Source: Paludibacteraceae bacterium
Lineage (GTDB): Bacteria; Bacteroidota; Bacteroidia; Bacteroidales; Paludibacteraceae
Length of the DNA stretch: 64,000 nt
Assembly (NCBI GenBank): GCA_045629285.1
Contig: JAZQQY010000038.1
Location: forward strand, 691 to 64,690
Direction: 5' to 3'
In this document: positions 47,313 through 64,000 of the stretch, piece after piece
Layout: every line of letters starts with the position of its first letter
Numbering within the stretch: position 1 is the first letter of the stretch
Made by a program: the position numbers and the translations under genes
Notes under the pieces: model-generated
Seen by the model: the letters and a program-made list of their open reading frames with translations, nothing else
What the model was told of the DNA's origin: nothing
Database searches by the model: none

Positions 47313-50300
47313 TTACCTCAACAAAGTAAAGTGTCCGAAATAGACCTTATCGATGGCATCGATACTCAATTCGTACCAGTAGTCGGAGCTAGGCATTGCA
47401 ATTCCGTTGTATGTTCCGTCCCACTCATCGTCATTCGATGCTTTTAGTGTAGTTAACAGTTTGCCATGACGGTTGTAGATTCTCATCGTAGTGTTAGGAT
47501 AGATCTTCACTGCATCAGGAATCTTTAGTGTGGCGTTATCGCCGTCGCTATCTGGCTCTATAAAGTTTTGAATGACAAATTCAGGCTCTGTTATAACGAA
47601 GGTTGTGTCGGTTTTGCATCCGGCAATGTCTATGATGCTCAACGTGTGTTTGCCAAAACCTAAATTATATTTCACATTGTCTGTGACATCTTTGGCTGTA
47701 GATTTTCCGTCTACGATAAATTGATATTCTCCTGCCGACGACATGTTGATCTGTACGTCATCAAGGCCGATAGAGTCGACAGATGCCAATTTCGGTGTGG
47801 CTCCGACCATCAATACGAACTCTTTTTCAAGAATGCACTTTCCACGGTAAGCGGTAACATAATATTTGTTTTCCACTCCGTTAGGCACAACTGTGATTAT
47901 TGCGGAATTTGAGTGGTCGTGTTCCCAATCGTATCTTTCTGCTTCCAATGCACTGGCATCCAGCGTTGTGCTATCGCCTTCACACATGATTGTTCCGGCT
48001 TCGATATTTCCGTTCATTTGAGGATGGACATTTACATCGACAGTCTTTAGCTGTTGAGCGCAGTCGCCGTTGCGGATCACAACGTTATAGCTCTGTGAGG
48101 TATATGGCTTTAACGTTGCGGATGCCCCTTTGTTAGCGGTGACGATATCGTTTCCTGTTGACCATGAGTAAGATACCTTGTCGCTGTTTGGCGATATCTC
48201 AATGTCGACTTCTACTACATCACCCTGACAGATTGTGTCTGCCGATTGAGAAATGGCAATATTTAATGGTGGGTAGATGTCTGGGTCTCTATCAGAAACA
48301 AATCCGATGAATGAACATCCGTCGCATAGTAGGGTATATGTGTATTCTCCTATATCGGAAGCGGATACGTTGCTGATCCTCAATGTTTTTGTGTCTTTGA
48401 CGACTTCTTCTTCGTCTCTATACCATGTTACTTTGCATCCATCCACATTGCTTATTATAGCTGAAATCTCTCCTCCGTAGCAACTGCTCCATTTTGTAGT
48501 TTCCACAATAGGACTTGCTGTCATTACCGAGACGTTGAATGAGAATGATGTCTCGCAGTCGTTCGCGTAGATTACGGAATATGAGCCGTCTCCTGATATC
48601 GTGAATCTTGCTACGTTTCCGTCAAACGAATAAGTGCCTAGATCTGTGTTCCCCTTTCTTACGGTAAAGTCGGATGACGTGTGCTCTACTGTCGCTTCTA
48701 CGACAATTTCGTTTCCGCAACTGTTGAATGTCACGTTGTCCAGTGAGGATGATGTTCGTGCCTTGTTGCCTTCTGTAAATTGGATTTTTCCTCCTACTTT
48801 ACTTGTGCCGACGGAAATGTCCCAAGTGCCGCTTGCCTGGCAAACTCCAGTATTAACTGTGCAGCTAAGAGTTAAGTCGCGGATTCCCATCGTTACGTCC
48901 ACTGTCGAAGATGCCGTATTTGATATAGCTTCAGGTGAATCGCAGCTCCATGTCGTGCGGTCGAAACTTGTGGTATTGCCGTCTCCCGACACTGTGACCT
49001 TTCCGTCTTTGCCCGGACATAGATGATCGTCTCCGCTTATCTTCATTCCGAGTGAATCCGCCACGACATTGACAGATGCCAGTTCACTCCAGCATTTGTC
49101 TCCATTCACTAATTCATATCTTTTTGCATAGAATGTGTGGGTGCCTTTCTTTTTGATTGGAGCGACTGTCGTCAACTCATTTTTATCAGCATCGTACCAT
49201 TGTAAGTTTGAACTTGAGCTTAGTTGCGACAACTGAATTTCCTTCGTATCGTTAAGGCACAAAGATGCAGGAGTAGTCGACGGAATGGCCGGCTGACTTA
49301 CGGTGATAGTCATAGGCACGATCGGACCGGACAGATTACGTGACAGTTCTGTTTGCCTGATATATATCGTTTGTATGCCAGTGGCTGACACGTTTAATGG
49401 ATATGCGAAGTGAGTTTCGCCGGCAGATAGTGACATTGCACCGCTCATGTCGGCATTTTTACTGATACTCAAAGAGTAGTGCGAGGTGTTGTCTGACGCA
49501 TCCACAGTTTTGATTATCGCGTCGAATCCGTCTGCTGCGCGTGGATCGTTGATGCAGAACTCCAGGTTGTCGGCAACAGGGGATGGACATTCGAACAGGT
49601 CTGCTTGGAACGTCCAGTTTGCAGTTTCTGAGCACGCTCCGTCATTCACGACGGCTGTAAGAGTGACGGGAGTTCCTCCCATCTTGACGGTCACGTCTTT
49701 CTTGTCGGCATCACCTATAATGGATCCCGCAACATTACTGCTCCATGCGATTGTCTGATTGCCGCTGCCTGTTATCGTAAGTTCGGATTTGCCGGTTTCG
49801 CCTGGCAACAAAACGTTGTCTCCTGAAATCGCCACATTAAGGGCGTCGACGTGTATTGTGGCAGTAGCGATTTCACTATGGCACTGAGTTCCGTTTACAA
49901 TTTCCGATTTTTGCGCGCTGACTACGATGTCTCCGCGTTCCACTGTGCTGACACTTCCTGTTATGATGCTGTTGCTAGCGTCTCTCCAGATTATGCCGGC
50001 TTCATTGCTGATTGACGACAGCTCTACGCTTTGTGTAGAGTTTGCACATACGGATTTGTTTGTCAATGCAGGTGCAACAGGTTGCTTTACAACAACTTTG
50101 AATGGAACGACTACGCTGTATTGATCGTCTGTTATCTGTTGCTGGCGTACGTAGTATGTTGTTGTGCCAGCTTTGGTTACATCGAATGCAAAATTAAAAT
50201 GGGTCTCTCCTGCAGAAAGAGTGACGGCATCGCTCATATCAGCGTTTTTGCTGAATTGTAGGGCATAGTTTGCCACGCTTTCTCCTGCCTCGCCAGCCAG

Positions 50301-51368
50301 ACCGAGTTCTGCATCAAAACCGTCGCTTGCTTGTAGATCTCCCACGCAGAATTCTTTGTCGCTGACTGTCGGTGTCGGCACAAGATATCTCAAAAGATAT
50401 AGTGTGGTAGTCTTGAGAGGAGTGCTGCATCCACAGTCTTTCTGGACTGTATATTGGTCGATAGTAGAGCCCGACTTGGTAGGAACTGGTGGGATATAGT
50501 TCTCGAAGTCGGCTATGACGTTCCCGTCCGGACCTCTCCAGATAAGGTCGCAGTTGTTTTCGTTGTTGTCTACCAGTTCTGTCCCGTGCTGTTCCAACGC
50601 TTGCTCCAGAATGGTCTTTGTATAGAATCCGTTCTTGATATCGGAGGGCCCGTAGTTTACGTATGATTTGCTTAGATGTGCGGCTCCGTTTCCGATGACG
50701 GAAAGCTTGAGTTCAACTCCTTTGCTGAAACAGTCGCCATCCTTTATGGCAACTCTGTAAATATGGTCGCCTTCACCCAGAGAGCCGATGTTCATGTAGT
50801 CCCAAAGACCGAGGGCATTGCCATCTTCATCGTACCAATGGTATTTGCCGGACGTGTATTTGCCGACGAACGTACTGACCGATGACGGCATTTTCCCGGC
50901 ACAATAAGGTTCGAATTGAGGAGCAGTGATATCCTTGATGTGGATGGCATCGAATGTGATCTCCTCGACCCAGCTGCCTGCACTTCCGTCTGCCGGCGTG
51001 ATTCTGACATAGTATGTCTTGGAAACTGTCTTCTCGTTTTCCGGGTTGAAGATTCTTCTGTCGACTGTATAGCTGACTCTGGTAGGGTCAACGTCGGAAT
51101 ATGCTTTTAGCGCTTTGGATACAGTTCCGACATCTGCTAAATCTTCATATATTTCGGCATTGATATTGCCTAAATCCAAAGCATCCTTATTGGCTGCTGT
51201 GACTTGGATTTTTGCAGTGTTCTCCAAGTCGCACATGAAGAAATTGCCGTTTTGGGCTCGGTGGATATTGCTCAAGACAAGGAATATAGGGTCGGCCAGC
51301 GTAGTGGTTACGCCGGCAAGAGAAATCAAAGTGAGAAAACACTTTGCTATGCCCTGTCTGATATTCAT
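47313..51368 (-). CDS. 1351-aa Ig-like repeat adhesin with T9SS type-B (gliding-motility-associated) C-terminal domain
   Basis: The C-terminus ...KIYPNTTMRIYNRHGKLLTTL...WDGTYNGIAMPSSDYWYEL...GHFTLLR fits the type-B CTD pattern. Contains a tandem ~260-aa internal duplication. Confidence 0.8.
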   Translation of the reverse strand: MNIRQGIAKCFLTLISLAGVTTTLADPIFLVLSNIHRAQNGNFFMCDLENTAKIQVTAANKDALDLGNINAEIYEDLADVGTVSKALKAYSDVDPTRVSYTVDRRIFNPENEKTVSKTYYVRITPADGSAGSWVEEITFDAIHIKDITAPQFEPYCAGKMPSSVSTFVGKYTSGKYHWYDEDGNALGLWDYMNIGSLGEGDHIYRVAIKDGDCFSKGVELKLSVIGNGAAHLSKSYVNYGPSDIKNGFYTKTILEQALEQHGTELVDNNENNCDLIWRGPDGNVIADFENYIPPVPTKSGSTIDQYTVQKDCGCSTPLKTTTLYLLRYLVPTPTVSDKEFCVGDLQASDGFDAELGLAGEAGESVANYALQFSKNADMSDAVTLSAGETHFNFAFDVTKAGTTTYYVRQQQITDDQYSVVVPFKVVVKQPVAPALTNKSVCANSTQSVELSSISNEAGIIWRDASNSIITGSVSTVERGDIVVSAQKSEIVNGTQCHSEIATATIHVDALNVAISGDNVLLPGETGKSELTITGSGNQTIAWSSNVAGSIIGDADKKDVTVKMGGTPVTLTAVVNDGACSETANWTFQADLFECPSPVADNLEFCINDPRAADGFDAIIKTVDASDNTSHYSLSISKNADMSGAMSLSAGETHFAYPLNVSATGIQTIYIRQTELSRNLSGPIVPMTITVSQPAIPSTTPASLCLNDTKEIQLSQLSSSSNLQWYDADKNELTTVAPIKKKGTHTFYAKRYELVNGDKCWSELASVNVVADSLGMKISGDDHLCPGKDGKVTVSGDGNTTSFDRTTWSCDSPEAISNTASSTVDVTMGIRDLTLSCTVNTGVCQASGTWDISVGTSKVGGKIQFTEGNKARTSSSLDNVTFNSCGNEIVVEATVEHTSSDFTVRKGNTDLGTYSFDGNVARFTISGDGSYSVIYANDCETSFSFNVSVMTASPIVETTKWSSCYGGEISAIISNVDGCKVTWYRDEEEVVKDTKTLRISNVSASDIGEYTYTLLCDGCSFIGFVSDRDPDIYPPLNIAISQSADTICQGDVVEVDIEISPNSDKVSYSWSTGNDIVTANKGASATLKPYTSQSYNVVIRNGDCAQQLKTVDVNVHPQMNGNIEAGTIMCEGDSTTLDASALEAERYDWEHDHSNSAIITVVPNGVENKYYVTAYRGKCILEKEFVLMVGATPKLASVDSIGLDDVQINMSSAGEYQFIVDGKSTAKDVTDNVKYNLGFGKHTLSIIDIAGCKTDTTFVITEPEFVIQNFIEPDSDGDNATLKIPDAVKIYPNTTMRIYNRHGKLLTTLKASNDDEWDGTYNGIAMPSSDYWYELSIDAIDKVYFGHFTLLR

Positions 51369-51881: not shown

Positions 51882-54014
51882 CTATTCTTTGATGAATTTT
51901 GTGTGGTATTTGCCTTTATCGGTTGTGATTTCTGCCGAATAAATACCTTTTGGCAAGTCTTTCACGTTAATTTTTTTGTCGTCGCTGTACAATAATTCTG
52001 CACCGTCGACACCGAATATACTGACGTTTTTGACCTCTTCCGTACAGTTGATATTGATTATATCTTTTGTGGGATTCGGGTATACGGTAACTGCCGCATT
52101 TGTCGGAATCTCATCTGCGCTGTTGGTGTCTGCTTCTCTGACTACGGTATTGATCAGCAGTCCGCCTACGCTTTTGTCGAATGGATGGTTGTCCCAAGAT
52201 TCCCATTCTCCGTTCTTTTTGAAGAAAGCGGTTCGGGGGCTTGAAACGGTTGCGAGCATTGCAAAATCATTTTTCTGATAATCAGTGTAGAATGAGACGA
52301 AGAATGTTTTCCCCGTCTTGACGACAGAATCCAATCGTATGTAGTTTTCCTTGTACGACCAGTTGCTGACCGTTGTTGTGGAGAATCCGGAAGCTTTGGA
52401 TTTATATTCCCTTGCTGTCACCTTTACCGGCGACTCATAGATCAGCGTTTCTGGCTTCTCATCTCCAGAGTATATCCTTAGGTAGACGGGATTTTTCGTG
52501 CTGTATGATCCCAAAATCGGTATGAATGAGATTCCATGAATTTCTGTGTTGTCGTATGGCGAAGTGAATTTTTCGGCAAACTCCTCCAATCCGAATTCGT
52601 TTTTGCCGGAAGCATATCCGTAACCTTCTTTATATGGTTCGTCAAATTCGGAAAATTCATGATAGTTCCTTAGTGGATAGCAGCGGTTGTCGTTTGTCTC
52701 TTTGCCTTCCATTCGTATGATTCCTGAACGGTATGGGTCTAGCACGGACATGATGCTGTTAGGCATTGATGAAGGGTCGTCCCAGACATTGTTTAGACGC
52801 CAGTATTTGTCGTCTCCTTTGTTGGTACATAGTGAGTTGCCTCCGGAAAGAGCTCCGATGATAAGACCGTTCCTGTCATATAGAGGTGAACCGGAAGAAC
52901 CGATTTCTGTTACTCCTACAGCCCATGTCTCGATCTTCCAATGAGAATCTCCTACAAGTCCATCCGTCTCAAACGATATCGGCATGGGGTCGTCTTCGCT
53001 GATGCTGATTTTCAACAGGTCGCCGTTAGGGTGGTGTAGACAGACTACCGGACCGTGTGGCGCCGATTCCACGTTCCATCCGCTTTCGAAAGTCATATAG
53101 TCGACAGGCGGACGTTGTGAAAGTTTAAGCAGAGCCATGTCTTTCCCGTGGTTTGAACTGACAACATTGCTGCCAGAAACAGATTTTTCGTAACTGCTTA
53201 TGAATCTTGCTTCACAGATGGAAGTGCTGTAGCCAAAATAGAATACACATTTGTTGGCTAGAGTGGAGTCGAAACGGTTTGTGTTATCTCTCAGGCAGTG
53301 AGCCGATGTCAACACGAATGATGCCGTTTCGTCGTCGCTGGCGATGAGTGATCCGCTGCAATATCTTGTCCCGTTGATGATAATCAGGCAGGCAGATCTG
53401 CTCTGGTCCTCTACAGCTTCATCCATGCAGACCATGTCCGTTTCGCAAAAGCTGGCTTTGCCTGAGTTCGGCAGCAGACGCAATTCATCGAATCCTACGT
53501 TGACAGCAGATATCGTTGCTGAAAACGAGTCGGCAGACGAAACTGGCACTTCACACTGAATCATGATGCTGTCGCCTGATACAGGAGTCGTGGCAAACAC
53601 GTCGCCAGAGAAAGATCTGTTCGTATAGGCTCCGTATATTTCTCCTCCGTCCGGACGGAATAGGTAGACCTTCGCGTTGTCCGGAAGATGCAAGGAGGTA
53701 AAAATCAGATTTAGGGATTTTGCATTTTCACTGTTGATTATCAATCTGTAGACGATGTTCTCTCCGTCAACTACGGATGAGGCTTCTTTTGCAATGTCGA
53801 TGTTTACATCTGTCTTGAAGGCAAACTGGTTGGCTTCTACTGTTTCTGTTGTGTCGGGAGTGATGGTGATTGACGGTATTTCCTCTGCCGAACGCAATGC
53901 TCGTGTCTGAATCGCCGACGGCAGACCGCCGAAACTGATTTGTGCGTGTGATGACAGACTAAACGCTACGGCAAGTATTGTAAGTATTAGACGTAAATTT
54001 TTCACCCTGTTCAT
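51882..54014 (-). CDS. S1-family (trypsin-fold) serine endopeptidase with T9SS type-A C-terminal domain
   Basis: VLTSAHC (His) and GSSGSPL (Ser). C-terminal VTVYPNPTKDIININ...LPKGIYSAEITTDKGKYHTKFIKE. Confidence 0.8.
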   Translation of the reverse strand: MNRVKNLRLILTILAVAFSLSSHAQISFGGLPSAIQTRALRSAEEIPSITITPDTTETVEANQFAFKTDVNIDIAKEASSVVDGENIVYRLIINSENAKSLNLIFTSLHLPDNAKVYLFRPDGGEIYGAYTNRSFSGDVFATTPVSGDSIMIQCEVPVSSADSFSATISAVNVGFDELRLLPNSGKASFCETDMVCMDEAVEDQSRSACLIIINGTRYCSGSLIASDDETASFVLTSAHCLRDNTNRFDSTLANKCVFYFGYSTSICEARFISSYEKSVSGSNVVSSNHGKDMALLKLSQRPPVDYMTFESGWNVESAPHGPVVCLHHPNGDLLKISISEDDPMPISFETDGLVGDSHWKIETWAVGVTEIGSSGSPLYDRNGLIIGALSGGNSLCTNKGDDKYWRLNNVWDDPSSMPNSIMSVLDPYRSGIIRMEGKETNDNRCYPLRNYHEFSEFDEPYKEGYGYASGKNEFGLEEFAEKFTSPYDNTEIHGISFIPILGSYSTKNPVYLRIYSGDEKPETLIYESPVKVTAREYKSKASGFSTTTVSNWSYKENYIRLDSVVKTGKTFFVSFYTDYQKNDFAMLATVSSPRTAFFKKNGEWESWDNHPFDKSVGGLLINTVVREADTNSADEIPTNAAVTVYPNPTKDIININCTEEVKNVSIFGVDGAELLYSDDKKINVKDLPKGIYSAEITTDKGKYHTKFIKE

Positions 54015-56960: not shown

Positions 56961-57033
56961 GGTGCCATAGCTCAGTTGGTAGAGCAAAGGACTGAAAATC
57001 CTTGTGTCCCCGGTTCGATTCCTGGTGGTACCA
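56961..57033 (+). tRNA. tRNA-Phe (anticodon GAA), no encoded CCA
   Basis: Acceptor GGTGCCA/TGGTACC, anticodon stem AAGGA/TCCTT with loop CTGAAAA, T-loop TTCGATT. The T-stem has one C-U mismatch (CCCGG/CCTGG). Confidence 0.88.
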
Positions 57034-57041
57034 CTTCAAAT

Positions 57042-57119
57042 GGTCTTATAGCTCAGTTGGTTCAGAGCATCTGCCTTACAAGCAGAGGGTCCTAGGTTCG
57101 AATCCTAGTGAGACCACCA
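57042..57119 (+). tRNA. tRNA-Val (anticodon TAC), CCA encoded, copy 1
   Basis: Acceptor GGTCTTA/TGAGACC, anticodon stem TCTGC/GCAGA with loop CTTACAA, T-arm CTAGG-TTCGAAT-CCTAG. Confidence 0.93.
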
Positions 57120-57182
57120 ACGTAGGAACGTCGCGTTAGTGCGTTCAAAATTGTAGAGATGTCGCGTCAGCGAGTCTAGATT

Positions 57183-57260
57183 GGTCTTATAGCTCAGTTG
57201 GTTCAGAGCATCTGCCTTACAAGCAGAGGGTCCTAGGTTCGAATCCTAGTGAGACCACCA
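57183..57260 (+). tRNA. tRNA-Val (anticodon TAC), copy 2, identical
   Basis: Same 78 nt as copy 1, offset by 141 bp. Confidence 0.93.
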
Positions 57261-57438: not shown

Positions 57439-57508
57439 TTACTTATGCCCCTCAACACTCTTTTCTTACAATTTATTTTCTATTTGAGCAGAAATCAAAA
57501 AAATGTAT

Positions 57509-57516
57509 TAAATTTG
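57509..57516 (+). promoter_or_regulatory. -7 promoter motif upstream of the giant ORF
   Basis: TAAATTTG matches TAnnTTTG, about 85 nt before ATG 57602. Confidence 0.4.
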
Positions 57517-57601
57517 GGCCGTTTTGGTGTGTAAACTATACTCATTCCACATCTTAACTAATAATAGGGCACTTATAATAGTATGATTAAAAGGGATTAT
57601 A

Positions 57602-60600
57602 ATGAATAAAGGCTTATTAACTCTAATATCCAGTATTGGACTTTTTCATGCAGTGTCGTCGTCGGCACAGTGTGTTGTTGCTAGTACTGATTTTGACACA
57701 AGCACTGATCTATGCTGTCCGATTTTGACTCCGGATGAAGATGGATGGTATAGTGAAGATCTTGACTGGAAAACACTCTGTAAGTCGAATATGTTTGTCG
57801 GACCTGAATATGCTGTTCAGGGAGGAATCGGTGGTGCATTCTCTAGTCAGGCTAGTGATAATATGACAAAGGTAGATGATGTATTTCATCTTGGTAGTCA
57901 AATTCAAAAAGGAGATGGCCAATATGGTTATTCTACTGTTACGGCACAACCAAAGCTTATACACTCTTTCTGTAAAGCAAATGATGATGCGAATAACATG
58001 TATGTCAATGTCGGTTCTGCCGATAATTCTCAATTTTTGACTTATACTGTATATGGATTGAATCCCGGATCTGATGTAGAGTTGTCGTTTACATTGTATA
58101 ATCTGTTGGATCCATCGTATTTTGAATATCTTACCGACAATGTTCTTGGTGGTACAAAAATAATGCTAGATTTTATCACTAAATATAACATTTCAAACAC
58201 TGGTAATATTACTGGTCAGCCGTTGGGACTAGGTGTGATTTCTACAGATCAAGATATCTCATATAACACAGGATACAATAACTCTATCCAGTTACAACCG
58301 ACTACTAAATATACGTCTGCTACGGCTGGATTTGGAAAGTCAACTGTTGTGACTCATAAGGCAAAAGTTACAGCGACGGGTTCCATCTCTTTCCTTTTCT
58401 TCCGTACAGGCGACTGTTTCCAGATTCCTATCGGTATTGATGACATAAAGGTGACAGGTAGTATCAAACCTGTTATTACAAGTACTGGTAATCCATGTCC
58501 TCAGATGCCGATGCGTGTGATTACTAAGTCTACTTATCCGTCCGGAACAAAGTTCTCTTGGAAAGAGTCTGTAACAGGACAAACTTCCACAGACCCAAGT
58601 TTCAATTTCACTCCGGATGCTGCCGAGACAGATTATAGCATCTCTCTTGAAGTGACTTTGCCAGGATGTACGCCATCTAAGGCAGATGTTTATCCTGTTC
58701 ATTCAGGAACTTGTTGTACAAATGACGATGGAGCTCCGATGGCGAAGACCAATTTGTTCTTTGACGACTTTGGTAGTTTCCCATCTGATGATACATACGA
58801 GTGGACTGATAGATTTGGAGTGACTCATACAGTAAAGATTCCTGCCGGACAGGTTCATGAAGCGCAGTCGCATACTGGAAATCCTAAAATTCCTTATGTA
58901 AAAGCATATAATATTGAGGCGAGCGGCGCAACTTTGACTGTACCTCCACTTGGTACTGGAGGTAAGACTGAGTTGTACAACCATGGCGCTTACGCCGTTT
59001 CTAAATATGGAGGATATCCTCAGGGTGTACAGTATGATAATTCAGGAACTCAAATTGGTGGTATGCTTCAGTTTGACCTGCTGGACAATGGAACGCAGGA
59101 TAACTTTTTTGAAATAGATGTTGAACATATCTGTACTGGAAAGGAGATCTCTTTTGGTGCTGATTTCGCTTCTATTTCTAATCACCCGGGTTCTATTGAG
59201 GTGGTTTTGGAACATAGCGGAAATGTTCTAGACAGTCAGTACAAGTATTTTTCAGGAGGTGCTGATGGATGGAAGAATGCAAGTAATTCTTTTGTCATAA
59301 ATTCATCGGATGTAGGTGGTGCATCTGAGGTAACAATCACCATGAAGGTGAGACATTACGGAAAGATGGAAGATGGTTCGGATATTACCGGAGAGACTCG
59401 TGACTATGCTATCGATAATATCATTTTCCAGGTTTGTACTCCTCCTGATGTCAATGTGGAGTCTTCTGTTTCTACTGGTAAGGATATCCTTGACTTGTGT
59501 ACTGAGGATGTGTTGAAATTGACTTCTGTAACTTCAGAAGCCGTAAAGAGATTCTATTTGTATAGTAATAAGCAGCTAGATCCAAATAAAGAGGTTGGTT
59601 ACGTTTATCAGTACACTTTCCAGGATCCATCTACAGAAAGTGACACTAATCCGATTACATGGGAGACTCTTCATAGAGAAGAGGTTGTTAAGACAGAGTC
59701 ATTTGATGTAAAGGTTGAGGATTATTGGGATGATATCTTCTCTCAGCTTGGTGATGATCCGACTCACGAGAAGCGTATCTATTTCCGTGTGGTTGTGGGA
59801 GAATATTCAGATTTGATTGCAGACCAGTCTTGGAAGAAGAACTCTGCGTTCTCTCCATGTCGTAAGATTTCAATCTCTACAATTCCGGTTGTGGCAGGTT
59901 TGAACTGTGCCGCATGTGAGAAGGTTAAGGAGGCATCTATAATTTCAGCTGATCCTTCGACCGTAATCACAACTAATGCAAATGGAGAGAAGGAGGTTCA
60001 CCTATGTCTTGGTGAAATCGCTCACTTGACAACTGAGAAGTTTGCTCCGACAGACCCTACTGTTATGGGTATTACTGTCGGTTCGGACAAAGAGCCTCGT
60101 AAGTATTTGGCTTCTTGGATCAGAGGAAGAAAGGAAGCTGCAGGAAAACCAGGTGCTGGTTATACTCCTGGAGATGAGACTTCTTCATTTGATGTGACTT
60201 GGGAAAATGCAGATAAATATTATCTATTGGTTAAGGATATCGAGTTCCCTGGTGAAGATGGACAAAGCTGTTGGGTATACGATAGTATCAATGTCATCGG
60301 TTATGACAAGCCAACCGACAAGCTGACAGATCCAGCCCCATTCTGTGAAGGAATGTTGTCGTCAGAGCCGGACAAGAGCATGTCTGGATTCAAGATCCAG
60401 TGGTACGAGAGCGACGCCGATACGACAGCATCGGCGGAGATTCCGGAACCAGAAATCGGCAAGGTCAAGAAGGCCGACATGCCCAAGACGTTCCACTACG
60501 TAGTGACGGACGAGAACGGCTGCCGCGGCGAGGTGAACGACTACGAGGTGGTGGTGAACAAGGCGGAGAGGAACAACGTGGAGAGCGGCTCGAAGATCGA

Positions 60601-63600
60601 GTACCGCAAGAACGACGCGAAGGGAGGCAAGACGCTGAAGCCGCTCGACCAGCAGAACGCGCGCGTGTTCAACGCGGCTCAGACAACGGCAGGCCACAAG
60701 CTGATGATAGGGCTTATCGTTGGGGCGGAGGAATCCACCACACCGGACACCGCGACAGCGACATTCGGAACGGCAAGCACTACGATGCCAACACCAGCGG
60801 TGAAGGACGCGGACAACTCGGACGACGAGTACCTATGGTACTACACGTACCTGGAGACAGACGAGGGCTGCGTGAGCGACACTGTGTTGGTGGGCGTAGC
60901 GATCATGGGAGCACCTGCACCGAAGACAGAGAACGCCGAGTACTGCGTCAACTCGACGACGGTGAGGGCGATGAAGTCCTACGCGACACCGTCGGTGGAG
61001 GACCCGACAGGCACACTTGTCTTCTACGGAACGGACAAGACGACGACAATGGACGGGGACGACCTTCCTGACGTGACGGCACCGGGCAAGTACACGTACT
61101 GGGTGAGCCAGGTGAGCTCGACAGGCGGCGGGGAGAGCTCGAAGCAGCCGGTCGAGATCGAGGTGTACGGAGTGAGCGGCGTGACGATCAGCCCGGCATC
61201 CGACAAGTACTGCAAGGGATCGACGGAGGCCAAGCTCGACGGTCTGGCGTCGGAGGTCGCGTCCGGCGACAGCTACGTGAAGTCGTCCGGCTGGGAGTAC
61301 TTCAAGGGCACGGAGCCGGCGGCCAACGAGAAGACGGCCGGAGCCGAGAGCACGATGGACATCTCCACAGCCGAGACAGGCCAGATAGAGTATTTCGCGC
61401 GCATGACATACACCATCGCAAGCACAGGCGAGGTCTGCTACGGAGCGCACAAGAAGTTCACGGCCGAGGTGCAGTCGGTCGACGACCCGATAACGAACCC
61501 GATCACGTACCTGAAGAGCGAGGGCGCGTCGGGCGGTTTCAGGGCCCCATTGGCCCAGAACCCCGACGGAGTGATAGGCGACGCGTCGTGCGGCGACTGC
61601 AGCATAGAGTGGTACAGCGACGCGGCCGGAACGACCAAGATCACGGAGGCGCAGGCCACACCGATATACGACAGCAACCTTCAGGGCAACGACGAGAAGA
61701 CGTATTATGTGAAGCAGGTGAACAGCCTAGGCTGCGAGAGCTCTCTGGTTCCGGTGAAGATCATCGTGTCGGGCTATCCGACGCCGACGGTGAAGAACAT
61801 CTCGGTATGCGAGAACTCCGACCGCTTCACAGGCGAGATACAGGCGACGATCAACGGAACGACGGCAGACCCTGCGGGCCACTTCAAGCTGGTGTGGTAC
61901 AAGCAGGATCCCGTCACAAAGCAGGCCGACAAGACAGTGGAGTTCAACTGGATAGATTTCGACGCTAATAAGCACCAGTCGCTGTCCGAGGACATCCCGA
62001 CAATATACACATACTACGTGCTTCAGCGCCTTTTGGACCCGTACCAGCCGGTAGCGGGTCAGGTGGCGGAGAGCGCGCTGGTTCCGATGACGGTGACGGT
62101 GTATCCGACGCCGAAGCTGACCAAGCTGGTGACAGACCCGAAGTGCAAGGGCGAGAACCAGAAGCTGTCCGAGATGTACACGGTGCAGCCGGTGGACTGC
62201 GAGGTGTACAAGCTCAACCAGTCCACAAGCGAGAAGCTTCCTAGCGACGAGGTCACTGAGGCCGGAATCTACGAGGTCACTGGATCGTACGTGATCAACA
62301 AGGGCCAGGCCGACGAGGAGACATGCAAGTCGTTGACGGAGGAGCTTAAGGTTGTGTTCCACGAGCTTGACGCCGGCATCGTCGGATCCGACAGGACATG
62401 TCCGGGAGTGGGCGTCGACCTTGACGCGGACGTCACGGTCGGCGGAGGCTTGGCGCTTAACGAGGTGATGTACTCGTGGAGCAACGACCTGAACTCTACG
62501 GCAGAGACGACGAAGACATACAACACGGGAGCCGGCGGACTTAACGCTGCGGGCGACATCATGAAGGTGACGGTGGAGGTGTCCAGCCCGGCCTGCAAGG
62601 GATCGTACGCGGTGAAGAAGACACACGCCATCAAGGTCGGCGACGGTCCTCTTATCGGAAACATATCGTTCTCCGAGCCGAAGAACTCAGAGACGAAGAG
62701 CGAGCTGATCTCGTCGAGAAACATATCGTTCAACTCGTGCGGCGGCAAGGTGTCGGTAGAGCTTAGCGGCATCGCCAACAAGGACGGCGGCAGCTACACG
62801 TTGAGCGGGGACGCCAGCGAGAGCGGCTCGTTCGGAAGCGAGACATCCGGAACTGCCACGCTCAGCCTCGGCGAAGGAAGCTACACGGTGGAGTTCGTGA
62901 ACGAGTGCCCTACGAAGTTCAGCTTCGAGATCATAGACTACAGCAACACGGCCAGATCGACAAACCACGACATGACGATCTGCGAGGACGAGAAGTGGTT
63001 CGCGGAGATCCTCGACATCAAGGGCCCATCCCCAAGGATCGAGTGGAAGCACGACGGGGTTCCGATGGCCGGCGAGACAGGCACGAAGATCCAGTTCAAC
63101 CAGTCCAAACCGTCTGACAGCGGAGTGTACACATACGCGCTGTACTCCGCAGGATGCGAGTACAACGGCAAGATCGCGTTGGGCGACGCGCTAAAGGTGA
63201 AGCCGATCGCGGAGTTCAAGAGCAGCTCCTACCAGACGAGATACGAGGTCGTGAACGGCAAGCAGCTCCAGATCGACATGGACTTCAACGTCCCAGCGAA
63301 CAAGAACGACATAGACGCGGACGTGACATGGAAGGACCAGAGCGCGGGCTTCAGCGCCAAGACATCCAGCGTGACGATCGATCCGGTCACAAGGGACTAC
63401 AACCTGCACGTGGTGGCAGAGAACGACGACTACTGCAAGGCGGAGGCGGAGATCGCGGTGCTTGTGGACGCCAAGCTTAAGATAGAGGCCGAGCTGGAGC
63501 GCGTGCTCATGTGCGAGGGCGAGACCAACCACATCTACGTGGACACGACGGGAACAGGCAAGATCCTTCATCCGGAAGGCTTCGTGTTCACTGTGACGGA

Positions 63601-64000
63601 GGTGACGTCATCGGGAAGCAAGACGATCTCGCTCCACAGGGACGGAGACAGGCTTTCCGGCGAGATCAGCCCGACATCCGACGCCCAGTACACGGTGACA
63701 TACACATACACGAGCGACAGCCAGGACGAGAGCGTTACGCTTCCGTTGACGGTGAAGGAGAAGTTCCAGGTGGAAATCGCCGAGGTGGATCCGGTCTGCG
63801 AGGGCGACATCGCGACAGTGACAGTGAAGAACGTCTATCCTAGCGGAACGACCCTTGACTGGAGCGATAACCCGTCCGACGAGTATGTGAACGGATCGAT
63901 GTCCGGAGCGACGTTCGAGCCGAAGCACGACCAGGGAGGCGTTGCCCCTCAGGTGAAGAGATATTCGGTCGTCGCCAAGAACGGATTGTGCCAGGACAAG
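57602..64000 (+). CDS. giant secreted Ig-like-repeat adhesin (at least 2133 codons, 3' end outside window); not present in the supplied ORF track
   Basis: I translated the frame from ATG 57602 codon by codon to position 64000 without meeting a stop. It starts MNKGLLTLISSIGLFHAVSSSAQC (signal peptide). From ~aa 900 it has repeated modules with the W(Y)...YY(V)xQ...GC(E)S...V.V.V signature, like the type-B T9SS protein at 47313..51368. Confidence 0.85.
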   Translation, partial: MNKGLLTLISSIGLFHAVSSSAQCVVASTDFDTSTDLCCPILTPDEDGWYSEDLDWKTLCKSNMFVGPEYAVQGGIGGAFSSQASDNMTKVDDVFHLGSQIQKGDGQYGYSTVTAQPKLIHSFCKANDDANNMYVNVGSADNSQFLTYTVYGLNPGSDVELSFTLYNLLDPSYFEYLTDNVLGGTKIMLDFITKYNISNTGNITGQPLGLGVISTDQDISYNTGYNNSIQLQPTTKYTSATAGFGKSTVVTHKAKVTATGSISFLFFRTGDCFQIPIGIDDIKVTGSIKPVITSTGNPCPQMPMRVITKSTYPSGTKFSWKESVTGQTSTDPSFNFTPDAAETDYSISLEVTLPGCTPSKADVYPVHSGTCCTNDDGAPMAKTNLFFDDFGSFPSDDTYEWTDRFGVTHTVKIPAGQVHEAQSHTGNPKIPYVKAYNIEASGATLTVPPLGTGGKTELYNHGAYAVSKYGGYPQGVQYDNSGTQIGGMLQFDLLDNGTQDNFFEIDVEHICTGKEISFGADFASISNHPGSIEVVLEHSGNVLDSQYKYFSGGADGWKNASNSFVINSSDVGGASEVTITMKVRHYGKMEDGSDITGETRDYAIDNIIFQVCTPPDVNVESSVSTGKDILDLCTEDVLKLTSVTSEAVKRFYLYSNKQLDPNKEVGYVYQYTFQDPSTESDTNPITWETLHREEVVKTESFDVKVEDYWDDIFSQLGDDPTHEKRIYFRVVVGEYSDLIADQSWKKNSAFSPCRKISISTIPVVAGLNCAACEKVKEASIISADPSTVITTNANGEKEVHLCLGEIAHLTTEKFAPTDPTVMGITVGSDKEPRKYLASWIRGRKEAAGKPGAGYTPGDETSSFDVTWENADKYYLLVKDIEFPGEDGQSCWVYDSINVIGYDKPTDKLTDPAPFCEGMLSSEPDKSMSGFKIQWYESDADTTASAEIPEPEIGKVKKADMPKTFHYVVTDENGCRGEVNDYEVVVNKAERNNVESGSKIEYRKNDAKGGKTLKPLDQQNARVFNAAQTTAGHKLMIGLIVGAEESTTPDTATATFGTASTTMPTPAVKDADNSDDEYLWYYTYLETDEGCVSDTVLVGVAIMGAPAPKTENAEYCVNSTTVRAMKSYATPSVEDPTGTLVFYGTDKTTTMDGDDLPDVTAPGKYTYWVSQVSSTGGGESSKQPVEIEVYGVSGVTISPASDKYCKGSTEAKLDGLASEVASGDSYVKSSGWEYFKGTEPAANEKTAGAESTMDISTAETGQIEYFARMTYTIASTGEVCYGAHKKFTAEVQSVDDPITNPITYLKSEGASGGFRAPLAQNPDGVIGDASCGDCSIEWYSDAAGTTKITEAQATPIYDSNLQGNDEKTYYVKQVNSLGCESSLVPVKIIVSGYPTPTVKNISVCENSDRFTGEIQATINGTTADPAGHFKLVWYKQDPVTKQADKTVEFNWIDFDANKHQSLSEDIPTIYTYYVLQRLLDPYQPVAGQVAESALVPMTVTVYPTPKLTKLVTDPKCKGENQKLSEMYTVQPVDCEVYKLNQSTSEKLPSDEVTEAGIYEVTGSYVINKGQADEETCKSLTEELKVVFHELDAGIVGSDRTCPGVGVDLDADVTVGGGLALNEVMYSWSNDLNSTAETTKTYNTGAGGLNAAGDIMKVTVEVSSPACKGSYAVKKTHAIKVGDGPLIGNISFSEPKNSETKSELISSRNISFNSCGGKVSVELSGIANKDGGSYTLSGDASESGSFGSETSGTATLSLGEGSYTVEFVNECPTKFSFEIIDYSNTARSTNHDMTICEDEKWFAEILDIKGPSPRIEWKHDGVPMAGETGTKIQFNQSKPSDSGVYTYALYSAGCEYNGKIALGDALKVKPIAEFKSSSYQTRYEVVNGKQLQIDMDFNVPANKNDIDADVTWKDQSAGFSAKTSSVTIDPVTRDYNLHVVAENDDYCKAEAEIAVLVDAKLKIEAELERVLMCEGETNHIYVDTTGTGKILHPEGFVFTVTEVTSSGSKTISLHRDGDRLSGEISPTSDAQYTVTYTYTSDSQDESVTLPLTVKEKFQVEIAEVDPVCEGDIATVTVKNVYPSGTTLDWSDNPSDEYVNGSMSGATFEPKHDQGGVAPQVKRYSVVAKNGLCQDK

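Follow-up and report, generated by a model that had tools for sequence, protein, structure and literature searches.

A tandem pair of type IX-secreted adhesin genes in a Paludibacteraceae bacterium, with a probably homogenised stalk that forms the only GC-rich tract of the genome

The DNA analysed here, a stretch of 64,000 nucleotides (nt) from a Paludibacteraceae bacterium (the window), covers positions 691–64690 of contig C38 in an assembly, G000, that comprises 62 contigs and 3.64 Mb and is 98.6% complete. Its 3′ end carries most of a giant adhesin gene (gene a), which is followed on the contig by a tandem paralog (gene b). The frame of gene a begins with ATG at 57602 on the forward strand and is open to the window edge at 64000 (2133 amino acids, aa), as the original prediction had proposed from a manual translation. 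It is recovered by a listing of open reading frames (ORFs) in which open ends are allowed, and direct translation contains no in-frame stop between 57602 and 64000. In random sequence, a stop-free run of 2133 codons has a probability of (61/64)^2133, or about 1e-44. The absence of the frame from the ORF track, which had been put down to the way ORFs were called at the window edge, is indeed such an edge effect, since the frame closes 762 nt past the edge with a stop codon at window-equivalent 64760–64762 (contig 65450–65452), giving a complete protein of 2386 aa. Four shorter frames in the same interval are shadow ORFs and not genes (Table 1); they run long because the G+C content at third codon positions (GC3) of the real gene is 0.8–0.9 there.

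The product had been described as a signal peptide and a non-repetitive N-terminal region of ~900 aa followed by immunoglobulin (Ig)-like modules, an outline that agrees with a Pfam match to Ig_7 and with two AlphaFold models, and the Ig-like peptides quoted at the time are all found in the translation. Predicted cleavage of the signal peptide would leave an N-terminal glutamine, as in the Bacteroidetes ‘Q-rule’. The model of the head (residues 1–830, built from an 18-sequence alignment; mean predicted local distance difference test score, pLDDT, 81.4) contains two beta jelly rolls (D1 and D2) with an Ig/PKD-like insert between them, followed by a mixed alpha/beta module (D3). Its best Foldseek matches are a tandem CBM22 (4xup, E 5e-10), the CBM51 of ZmpB, the CBM32 of EngBF and other lectin-like sandwiches, where CBM denotes a carbohydrate-binding module. 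The jelly rolls gave no Pfam, NCBIfam or PDB-profile match, and the Ig insert alone can be recognised by sequence: its profile matches Ig-like surface-protein domains in the PDB (8yke, E 7e-4), and a PKD match is present in 2 of the 18 family members. Curated membership of CBM22, CBM4_9 or CBM32 was not found, the head having no Pfam match and one of the 18 family members a weak match to CBM_4_9_1 (E 0.008). D1 and D2 share the fold of the CBM jelly rolls (CBM22 of Xyn10C, CBM51 of ZmpB and CBM32 of EngBF) but differ from them in lacking a CBM-family sequence match and in their low TM-scores, which are low because the query is multi-domain. The presumed target of the head is a glycan or some other surface.

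The head is joined by a neck to a stalk, of which residues 881–2080 were modelled as a string of Ig-like beta-sandwich modules (pLDDT 77.8). The Ig_7 module is the only one in the stalk above its Pfam threshold, and internal tandem DNA repeats are lacking in gene a beyond three trivial two-copy rows of 12–15 nt. The best Foldseek matches of the stalk are the neck and base of GhpA (E 3e-26 and 6e-23), followed by titin, DSCAM and contactins. GhpA of Aureispira is a type IX secretion system (T9SS) substrate composed of a head, an Ig stem and a sorting domain (bioRxiv 10.1101/2024.01.29.577165). The adhesin resembles GhpA (PDB 9flp, 9fly) in its N-terminal binding head, long Ig-like stem and T9SS sorting domain, and differs in sequence (~14% identity), in length (2386 versus 5898 aa) and in having a jelly-roll head in place of a hook loop; GhpA is a heptamer, and the two are likened by monomer fold only. 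No PorP/PorE-type neighbours comparable to GhpB and GhpC were found beside the adhesin gene.

The complete protein ends in a type-B T9SS C-terminal domain (CTD), which lies beyond the window at the true C-terminus, where a search for it had been advised. Residues 2299–2385 match TIGR04131 with 80 bits (cut-off 35) over model positions 2–85 of 85, and PF13585 (CHU_C) matches the same C-terminus with 52.9 bits (cut-off 27). Together with the SprA/Sov translocon encoded in the genome (2062 bits), these matches bear out the proposal that the gene encodes a type-B T9SS cargo, and we have high confidence in the gene identity and secretion route. A GldJ-like protein is also encoded (399 bits, slightly below the family cut-off), together with 12 PorP/SprF-family genes, ~30 type-B CTD matches and abundant type-A cargos.

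The porP/sprF-like gene that had been expected beside the 3′ end is not there; a strong terminator, 30 nt past the stop, and the tandem paralog occupy the place instead. Nor does porP/sprF adjoin the syntenic and complete gene pair of G021, a genome of the same genus, where GHMP-kinase and nucleotidyl-transferase genes follow. In G000, 8 of the 12 PorP/SprF genes adjoin a type-B cargo gene and 4 are unlinked (one on C15, two on C34 and one on C14, the last adjoining a GldJ/PorK-like gene), while ~13 genes with high-scoring type-B CTDs, the adhesin gene included, have no shuttle gene as a neighbour. The cargos that are linked to a shuttle have low-scoring CTDs (28–48 bits) and the ~13 high-scoring ones (80–109 bits) are all ‘orphans’, which suggests that the CTDs fall into two subclasses that differ in their shuttle logic; among the shuttle-linked cargos is an open frame of 9027 aa on C10.

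In Flavobacterium johnsoniae, three orphan type-B substrates are served by one unlinked shuttle (PMC12618676). The adhesin shares with these substrates (Fjoh_1123, Fjoh_1720 and Fjoh_4934; shuttle Fjoh_1677) a strong TIGR04131/CHU_C CTD, a Sec leader (predicted here), the lack of a downstream porP/sprF gene and the presence of unlinked PorP/SprF genes in the genome. It differs in its unrelated passenger and in belonging to a different order (Bacteroidales). The original prediction had also called the protein SprB-like. This holds for the general build, as the F. johnsoniae gliding adhesin is likewise a giant filament of Ig repeats that ends in a type-B CTD and is exported by the T9SS. It does not hold for the family: scanning the full 2386 aa against Pfam at E ≤ 0.1 returned only Ig_7, weak I-set, Ig_3 and Filamin matches and CHU_C, with no SprB repeat, and no sprF follows the gene, which rules out SprB family membership. 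The adhesin is also only about one-third of the length of SprB and has a lectin-like head of its own.

Table 1. Features of the adhesin gene and its surroundings in window coordinates
Feature	Position	Strand	Basis
First 2133 of the 2386 codons of the adhesin gene (gene a)	57602..64000	+	ORF listing, translation; type-B CTD outside the window
Signal peptide, aa 1–22, MNKGLLTLISSIGLFHAVSSSA, then QC	57602..57667	+	Sequence inspection; pLDDT <50 in the model; leader conserved in homologs
Head D1, beta jelly roll, CBM/lectin-like, aa 24–286	57671..58459	+	AlphaFold; Foldseek
Ig/PKD-like insert, aa 290–368	58469..58705	+	Profile versus PDB; beta strands in the model
Head D2, second jelly roll, ending in conserved RDYAIDNIIFQVCTPP, aa 372–613	58715..59440	+	Model; invariant alignment columns
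Head D3, mixed alpha/beta module, aa 618–770	59453..59911	+	Secondary structure of the model
Neck, aa 771–902, GC3 0.13–0.5, 43–62% nt identity to gene b	59912..60307	+	Composition, alignment
GC-rich stalk, GC3 0.78–0.91, putative conversion tract from codon 903, continuing to the stop outside the window	60308..64000	+	Composition, identity, model
Ig_7 (PF19081, CHU_C-associated Ig-like), aa 1334–1389	61601..61768	+	48.1 bits, cut-off 27.3
Possible −7 promoter motif of Bacteroidetes type, TAAATTTG (TAnnTTTG), within the AAAAAATGTATTA element	57509..57516	+	Read from the sequence, inferred
Shadow ORF, not a gene	60400–61071	+	Wholly within the high-GC3 part of the real frame
Shadow ORF, not a gene	60833–61450	−	Wholly within the high-GC3 part of the real frame
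Shadow ORF, not a gene	61727–62626	−	Wholly within the high-GC3 part of the real frame
Shadow ORF, not a gene	62269–62781	−	Wholly within the high-GC3 part of the real frame

Gene b starts at contig position 65734, and contig C38 ends within it. The heads of the two G000 paralogs are 29–42% identical in amino-acid sequence (~35%), whereas from codon 903 their DNA is 97–100% identical to the end of the contig (98.6% over 362 nt). The pair was compared with the corresponding loci and homologs in G021, G151, G097, G144, G131, G115, G102, G028 and G081. In G021 both genes are complete (2412 and 2381 aa), with heads that are 32–52% identical. They share a terminal repeat of 4943 nt that runs up to the last sense codon; its 61 mismatches are confined to the 5′ edge, and the two copies are 100% identical over ~4.5 kb. 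A 7.5-kb contig from a third species, G151, comprises a stalk, the intergenic region, a b-type head and the next stalk, and its ends overlap by 123 identical nt. Between species the relation is reversed: the gene a products of G000 and G021 are 70–88% identical over the heads and 42–68% over the stalks, the stalk DNA being 59–73% identical. Over the stalk, paralogs within a genome are thus closer than orthologs between genomes, which is the test of concerted evolution, and over the heads the opposite is true. We conclude that the stalk and CTD very probably evolve in concert in the tandem pair. At the syntenic locus of G097 there is just one gene, which is the state expected after unequal exchange between direct repeats.

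A second stalk copy was not assembled in G000, where no other region reaches 53% GC over 1 kb. The flank behind the gene a stop, terminator included, is found a second time where contig C9 begins, 230 nt upstream of an ortholog of the GHMP-kinase gene located after the G021 pair. Since C9 carries the 3′ flank of gene b in this way, the stalk of gene b is unassembled or collapsed and not absent. On C9 the TAG stop and the 63-nt terminator flank directly adjoin, on their upstream side, a 139-nt repeat end of which at least three copies are present. This 139-nt sequence, which ends in GGGACGGTAGTG, is identical at the ends of three contigs (C9 1–204, C6 1–140 and C55 20673–20812), with three different unique flanks, and from its sequence it resembles the terminus of a mobile or repeat element with several copies, inserted at the gene b stop or close to it. 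In short-read metagenome-assembled genomes, head-bearing genes very often end at a contig edge after 840–1000 aa, at the head/stalk junction; concerted evolution of the stalks accounts for the many copies that break off there after 900–1000 aa.

The shared tract differs from the rest of the gene, and of the genome, in composition. Along gene a, GC3 is 0.25–0.46 up to about codon 880, 0.5–0.77 over codons 880–950 and 0.78–1.0 from there to the stop. The high-GC3 tract is the sole region of at least 53% GC over 1 kb in the 3.64-Mb genome, in which ORFs have a GC3 of 0.433 (s.d. 0.082) and the best 300-codon window elsewhere reaches 0.70, versus 0.86 here. The same switch is present in both G021 genes and in G151 and is weaker in G097 and G115; it is missing from the paralogs on C17 and C49 and from the same-genus orthologs of G144 and G131. 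Across the edge of the G021 repeat, over codons 760–920, a/b identity rises through 0.5, 0.78, 0.80, 0.85, 0.98 and 1.0, and GC3 rises in parallel (0.38, 0.50, 0.6, 0.75). A third head-bearing G021 gene, encoding 1442 aa and located ~10 kb from the pair on contig C22 of that genome (L020 968–5293, − strand), has a GC3 of 0.53–0.75 over codons 900–1400.

A low-GC head joined to a high-GC fragment of another organism by faulty assembly or binning could produce such a switch, and G000 is a 62-contig, metagenome-style assembly in which the contig ends inside the repeat. The frame is nevertheless unbroken over the head/stalk junction, dozens of independent assemblies contain full-length homologs that agree in length and architecture, and C9, at its start, repeats the post-stop flank and the terminator next to the syntenic GHMP-kinase gene. 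The switch itself is found in G021 (both genes), G151, G097, G115 and GCA_016295295.1. These five other assemblies rule out a chimera, and we assign an artefact of this kind a negligible probability.

The enrichment of the stalk is confined to synonymous sites. Its GC content at first and second codon positions (GC1 0.53 and GC2 0.43) and its ratio of arginine to lysine plus arginine (R/(K+R) 0.21) are the same as in GC-poor homologs, and its codons keep the habits of the genome, avoiding ACC and CCC and using ACA and GGA, in accordance with the four tRNA-Thr(UGU) and two tRNA-Gly(UCC) of G000. Relatives of 49–50% GC have another dialect, with 34–40% ACC (7% in the stalk), 24–33% GGT (3%) and 22–44% CGT (0%). 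The nearest relatives of the stalk are all of the same genus, and the G102 stalk is only 22–37% identical.

These data bear on whether the stalk and CTD are foreign, that is, taken up by recombination from a Bacteroidota donor of high GC, then joined by duplication to two heads, and now slowly ameliorating. Such an origin would fit the abruptness of the shift in G000 (~50 codons), the different histories of heads and stalks, with stalks moving between species (segments 95–100% identical in G144 and G131), the family members in relatives of 49–50% GC whose GC3 is high either along the whole gene or just in the stalk (G102, G028, L006), and the G097 copies, which resemble amelioration. It is at odds with an amino-acid composition of the low-GC type, with a codon dialect that keeps the quirks of G000, with closest stalks that are of the same genus, with the near-equilibrium of base changes in G000 and G021 described below, and with the fact that the AT-richer genome bears the GC-richer stalk (0.83 versus 0.62 in L006). 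Codon dialect and stalk identity rule out import from the 49–50% GC relatives, and import from a truly high-GC donor, for which no exhaustive search was made, is disfavoured because lysine far exceeds arginine and GC1 and GC2 are unchanged. A foreign origin is thus improbable. The segments shared by G144 (L011) and G131 (L012), over codons ~1100–1600, contrast with heads that are 45–66% identical and, on the sequences, this likeness points to a recent exchange of stalk DNA between species without GC enrichment.

The direction of change at third positions was polarised in a four-taxon alignment of few and related species. Changes from A or T to G or C (weak to strong, W>S) and the reverse (S>W) number 37:44 in gene a of G000 and 14:33 in that of G021, against 3:77 and 3:83 in the two dispersed and diverged copies of G097. 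The pooled counts are 51:77 versus 6:160 (Fisher p = 1e-15), and those of a conserved-codon subset 25:29 versus 5:91. The G000 and G021 genes are near W/S equilibrium at a GC3 of ~0.8, and the G097 copies are decaying. It follows that the force maintaining GC acts where the stalks are homogenised and not elsewhere, and GC-biased gene conversion (gBGC) is its simplest reading.

Alternatively, the GC-ending codons might themselves be selected, for the translation speed of a giant, export-competent protein, for mRNA stability or for the avoidance of AT-rich signals, with conversion only spreading them. The purely synonymous nature of the shift would be expected in that case, as would the near-abolition of NNT codons alongside the survival of ACA, GGA, ATA and AGA, for which abundant or dedicated tRNAs exist, the unequal depletion of T and A at third positions (T3 and A3) and the GC-richness of the third G021 gene without a/b identity. 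Selection on codons would not readily explain why no other G000 gene behaves in this way, including type-B cargos of 2000–9000 aa and the head on the same mRNA, why homologs of the same architecture do without (C49, C17, G144, G131 and G081), why W>S:S>W is as low as about 1:27 in G097, whose gene has become single-copy, or why GC3 follows a/b identity across the edge of the tract. We consider it unlikely, although it is a stronger candidate than a foreign origin. For GC pressure linked to conversion as the cause of the GC-rich tract, we put the chances at about even.

Several observations weigh against a homogenised, conversion-driven GC tract in a glycan-binding adhesin. The gene b stalk of G000 is unassembled, so that identity in this genome is seen over 362 nt only, and the 100% identity in G021 depends on an assembly made by others. 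The species compared are few and related. At first and second positions the W>S:S>W counts of 149:134 versus 58:65 differ in the right direction but not significantly (p = 0.33). T3 is depleted beyond A3 (0.06 versus 0.11), which pure, strand-symmetric gBGC would not predict. The third G021 gene, which has a type-A CTD, is GC-rich over codons 900–1400 and yet only 70% identical to a/b, and the G144 and G131 stalks, in spite of their shared segments of 95–100% identity, are GC-poor. We estimate that a two-copy system would need a repair bias of ~9:1 to hold a GC3 of 0.83 against AT-biased mutation. The head, finally, has no sequence-level CBM membership, its likeness being at the level of the fold only.

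With these reservations, we propose that gene a encodes a fibre adhesin of a tandem pair whose stalk is homogenised and subject to conversion-linked GC pressure, a reading that as a whole we regard as likely. A Sec signal peptide would take the protein to the periplasm, where the type-B CTD would hand it to the T9SS. As no porP/sprF gene adjoins it, the adhesin is probably served by an unlinked PorP/SprF-type shuttle and anchor, as the F. johnsoniae orphans are. On the cell surface, an Ig-like rod of ~1400 aa would hold out the head of ~770 aa with its two jelly rolls. The pair would present different heads on the same stalk and CTD, whose DNA would be kept identical by repeated gene conversion or unequal exchange; being homogenised, stalk and CTD evolve in concert within a genome and diverge faster than the heads between species. 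The homogenised tract alone would be driven to GC-ending codons by gBGC, or a similar process, acting on synonymous sites on top of the codon preferences of the lineage. The data show the frame, the CTD, the folds and the paralog, the contrast of identity inside a genome with divergence from species to species, the match of tract and GC3, and a GC3 that is at equilibrium in some copies and decays in others. The ligand, the shuttle, display at the surface and what drives the GC bias at the molecular level are inferred. A further possible reason for the identity of the stalks is that the two proteins assemble together, in the manner of GhpA, into one multi-strand fibre with two kinds of head.

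A gBGC hypothesis for bacteria was put forward by Lassalle et al. 2015 (PMC4450053). The present case resembles that hypothesis and the concerted evolution of mammalian multigene families in that paralogs are homogenised, GC3 is raised in the recombining tract and synonymous sites are affected most strongly. It differs from bacterial gBGC in magnitude, GC3 passing from 0.3 to 0.85 within one gene, far above the differences reported for core genes, and in kind, the process here being an intragenomic conversion between two tandem copies, with a putative bias, and not recombination in a population. More tentatively, and at somewhat less than even odds, frequent conversion of the tandem pair may itself be strongly GC-biased, having rewritten 4.5 kb of coding sequence to a GC3 of ~0.85 in a bacterium of 41% GC and keeping it at that level, with loss of the bias and decay of GC once a single copy is left.

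Of 151 genomes sampled in the family, 28 have the head; these represent 5 of 33 genera and include every sampled genome of the genus to which the window belongs. In public records, homologs of the adhesin go by the name ‘T9SS type B sorting domain-containing protein [Paludibacteraceae bacterium]’. Searched against 1.84 billion representatives, a head profile retrieved 472 clusters at E ≤ 1e-3, and 112 when E ≤ 1e-30 was required. The same head occurs on proteins of ~1460 aa that have a type-A CTD and a duplicated D2–D3 unit. G000 has six head-bearing genes: the tandem pair, one on C17 (type-A CTD), one on C49 (1878 aa, type-B), one on C18 (770 aa) and one on C10 (truncated). The head is thus a small, uncharacterised lectin-like family that is mounted on type-A or type-B secretion signals. 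In the genome of one relative, a homolog lies beside T9SS-secreted GH5 cellulases, GH94 and GH3, which hints at binding to plant fibre.

Upstream of gene a are two rhomboid genes, an EEP-family gene and genes for tRNA-Phe and two tRNA-Val, and this synteny is kept in G021 and G097. The tRNA genes, tRNA-Phe(GAA) and two tRNA-Val(TAC) with the same anticodon, occupy 56961–57260 directly upstream of gene a, and G021 has a similar tandem repeat at the same place (L008 1347–1677). A sigma-70 scan upstream of gene a gave nothing above chance. A AAAAAATGTATTA element precedes both gene a (57495–57520) and gene b (L003 116–334), ~90 nt before the start codon, and from its sequence it may be a promoter element common to the two genes. 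T9SS substrates are dense in the window: within 10 kb are a second orphan type-B cargo of 1351 aa (47313–51368, − strand; Ig_7 and PKD matches, TIGR04131 74 bits) and, bearing a type-A CTD, a trypsin-like protease (51882–54014, − strand).

As a gene, the adhesin is ordinary, an orphan type-B T9SS fibre adhesin whose homologs are already annotated in public databases as proteins with a type-B T9SS sorting domain and whose absence from the ORF list was an edge effect. What is new is a tandem pair with a DNA-identical stalk that is also the only GC-rich island of its genome. The head family is a candidate fibre- or glycan-binding adhesin family in Paludibacteraceae of the rumen and gut type, and the DNA-identical stalks systematically break short-read assemblies at the head/stalk junction, so that these genes are truncated in public assemblies and under-annotated. 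The existence of gBGC in bacteria is still debated. That the putative conversion tract coincides with an extreme synonymous enrichment in GC, which decays in a single-copy relative, makes bacterial gBGC directly testable on one locus and, if conversion here is indeed GC-biased, the pair would offer an exceptionally clean natural experiment on it inside a single gene.

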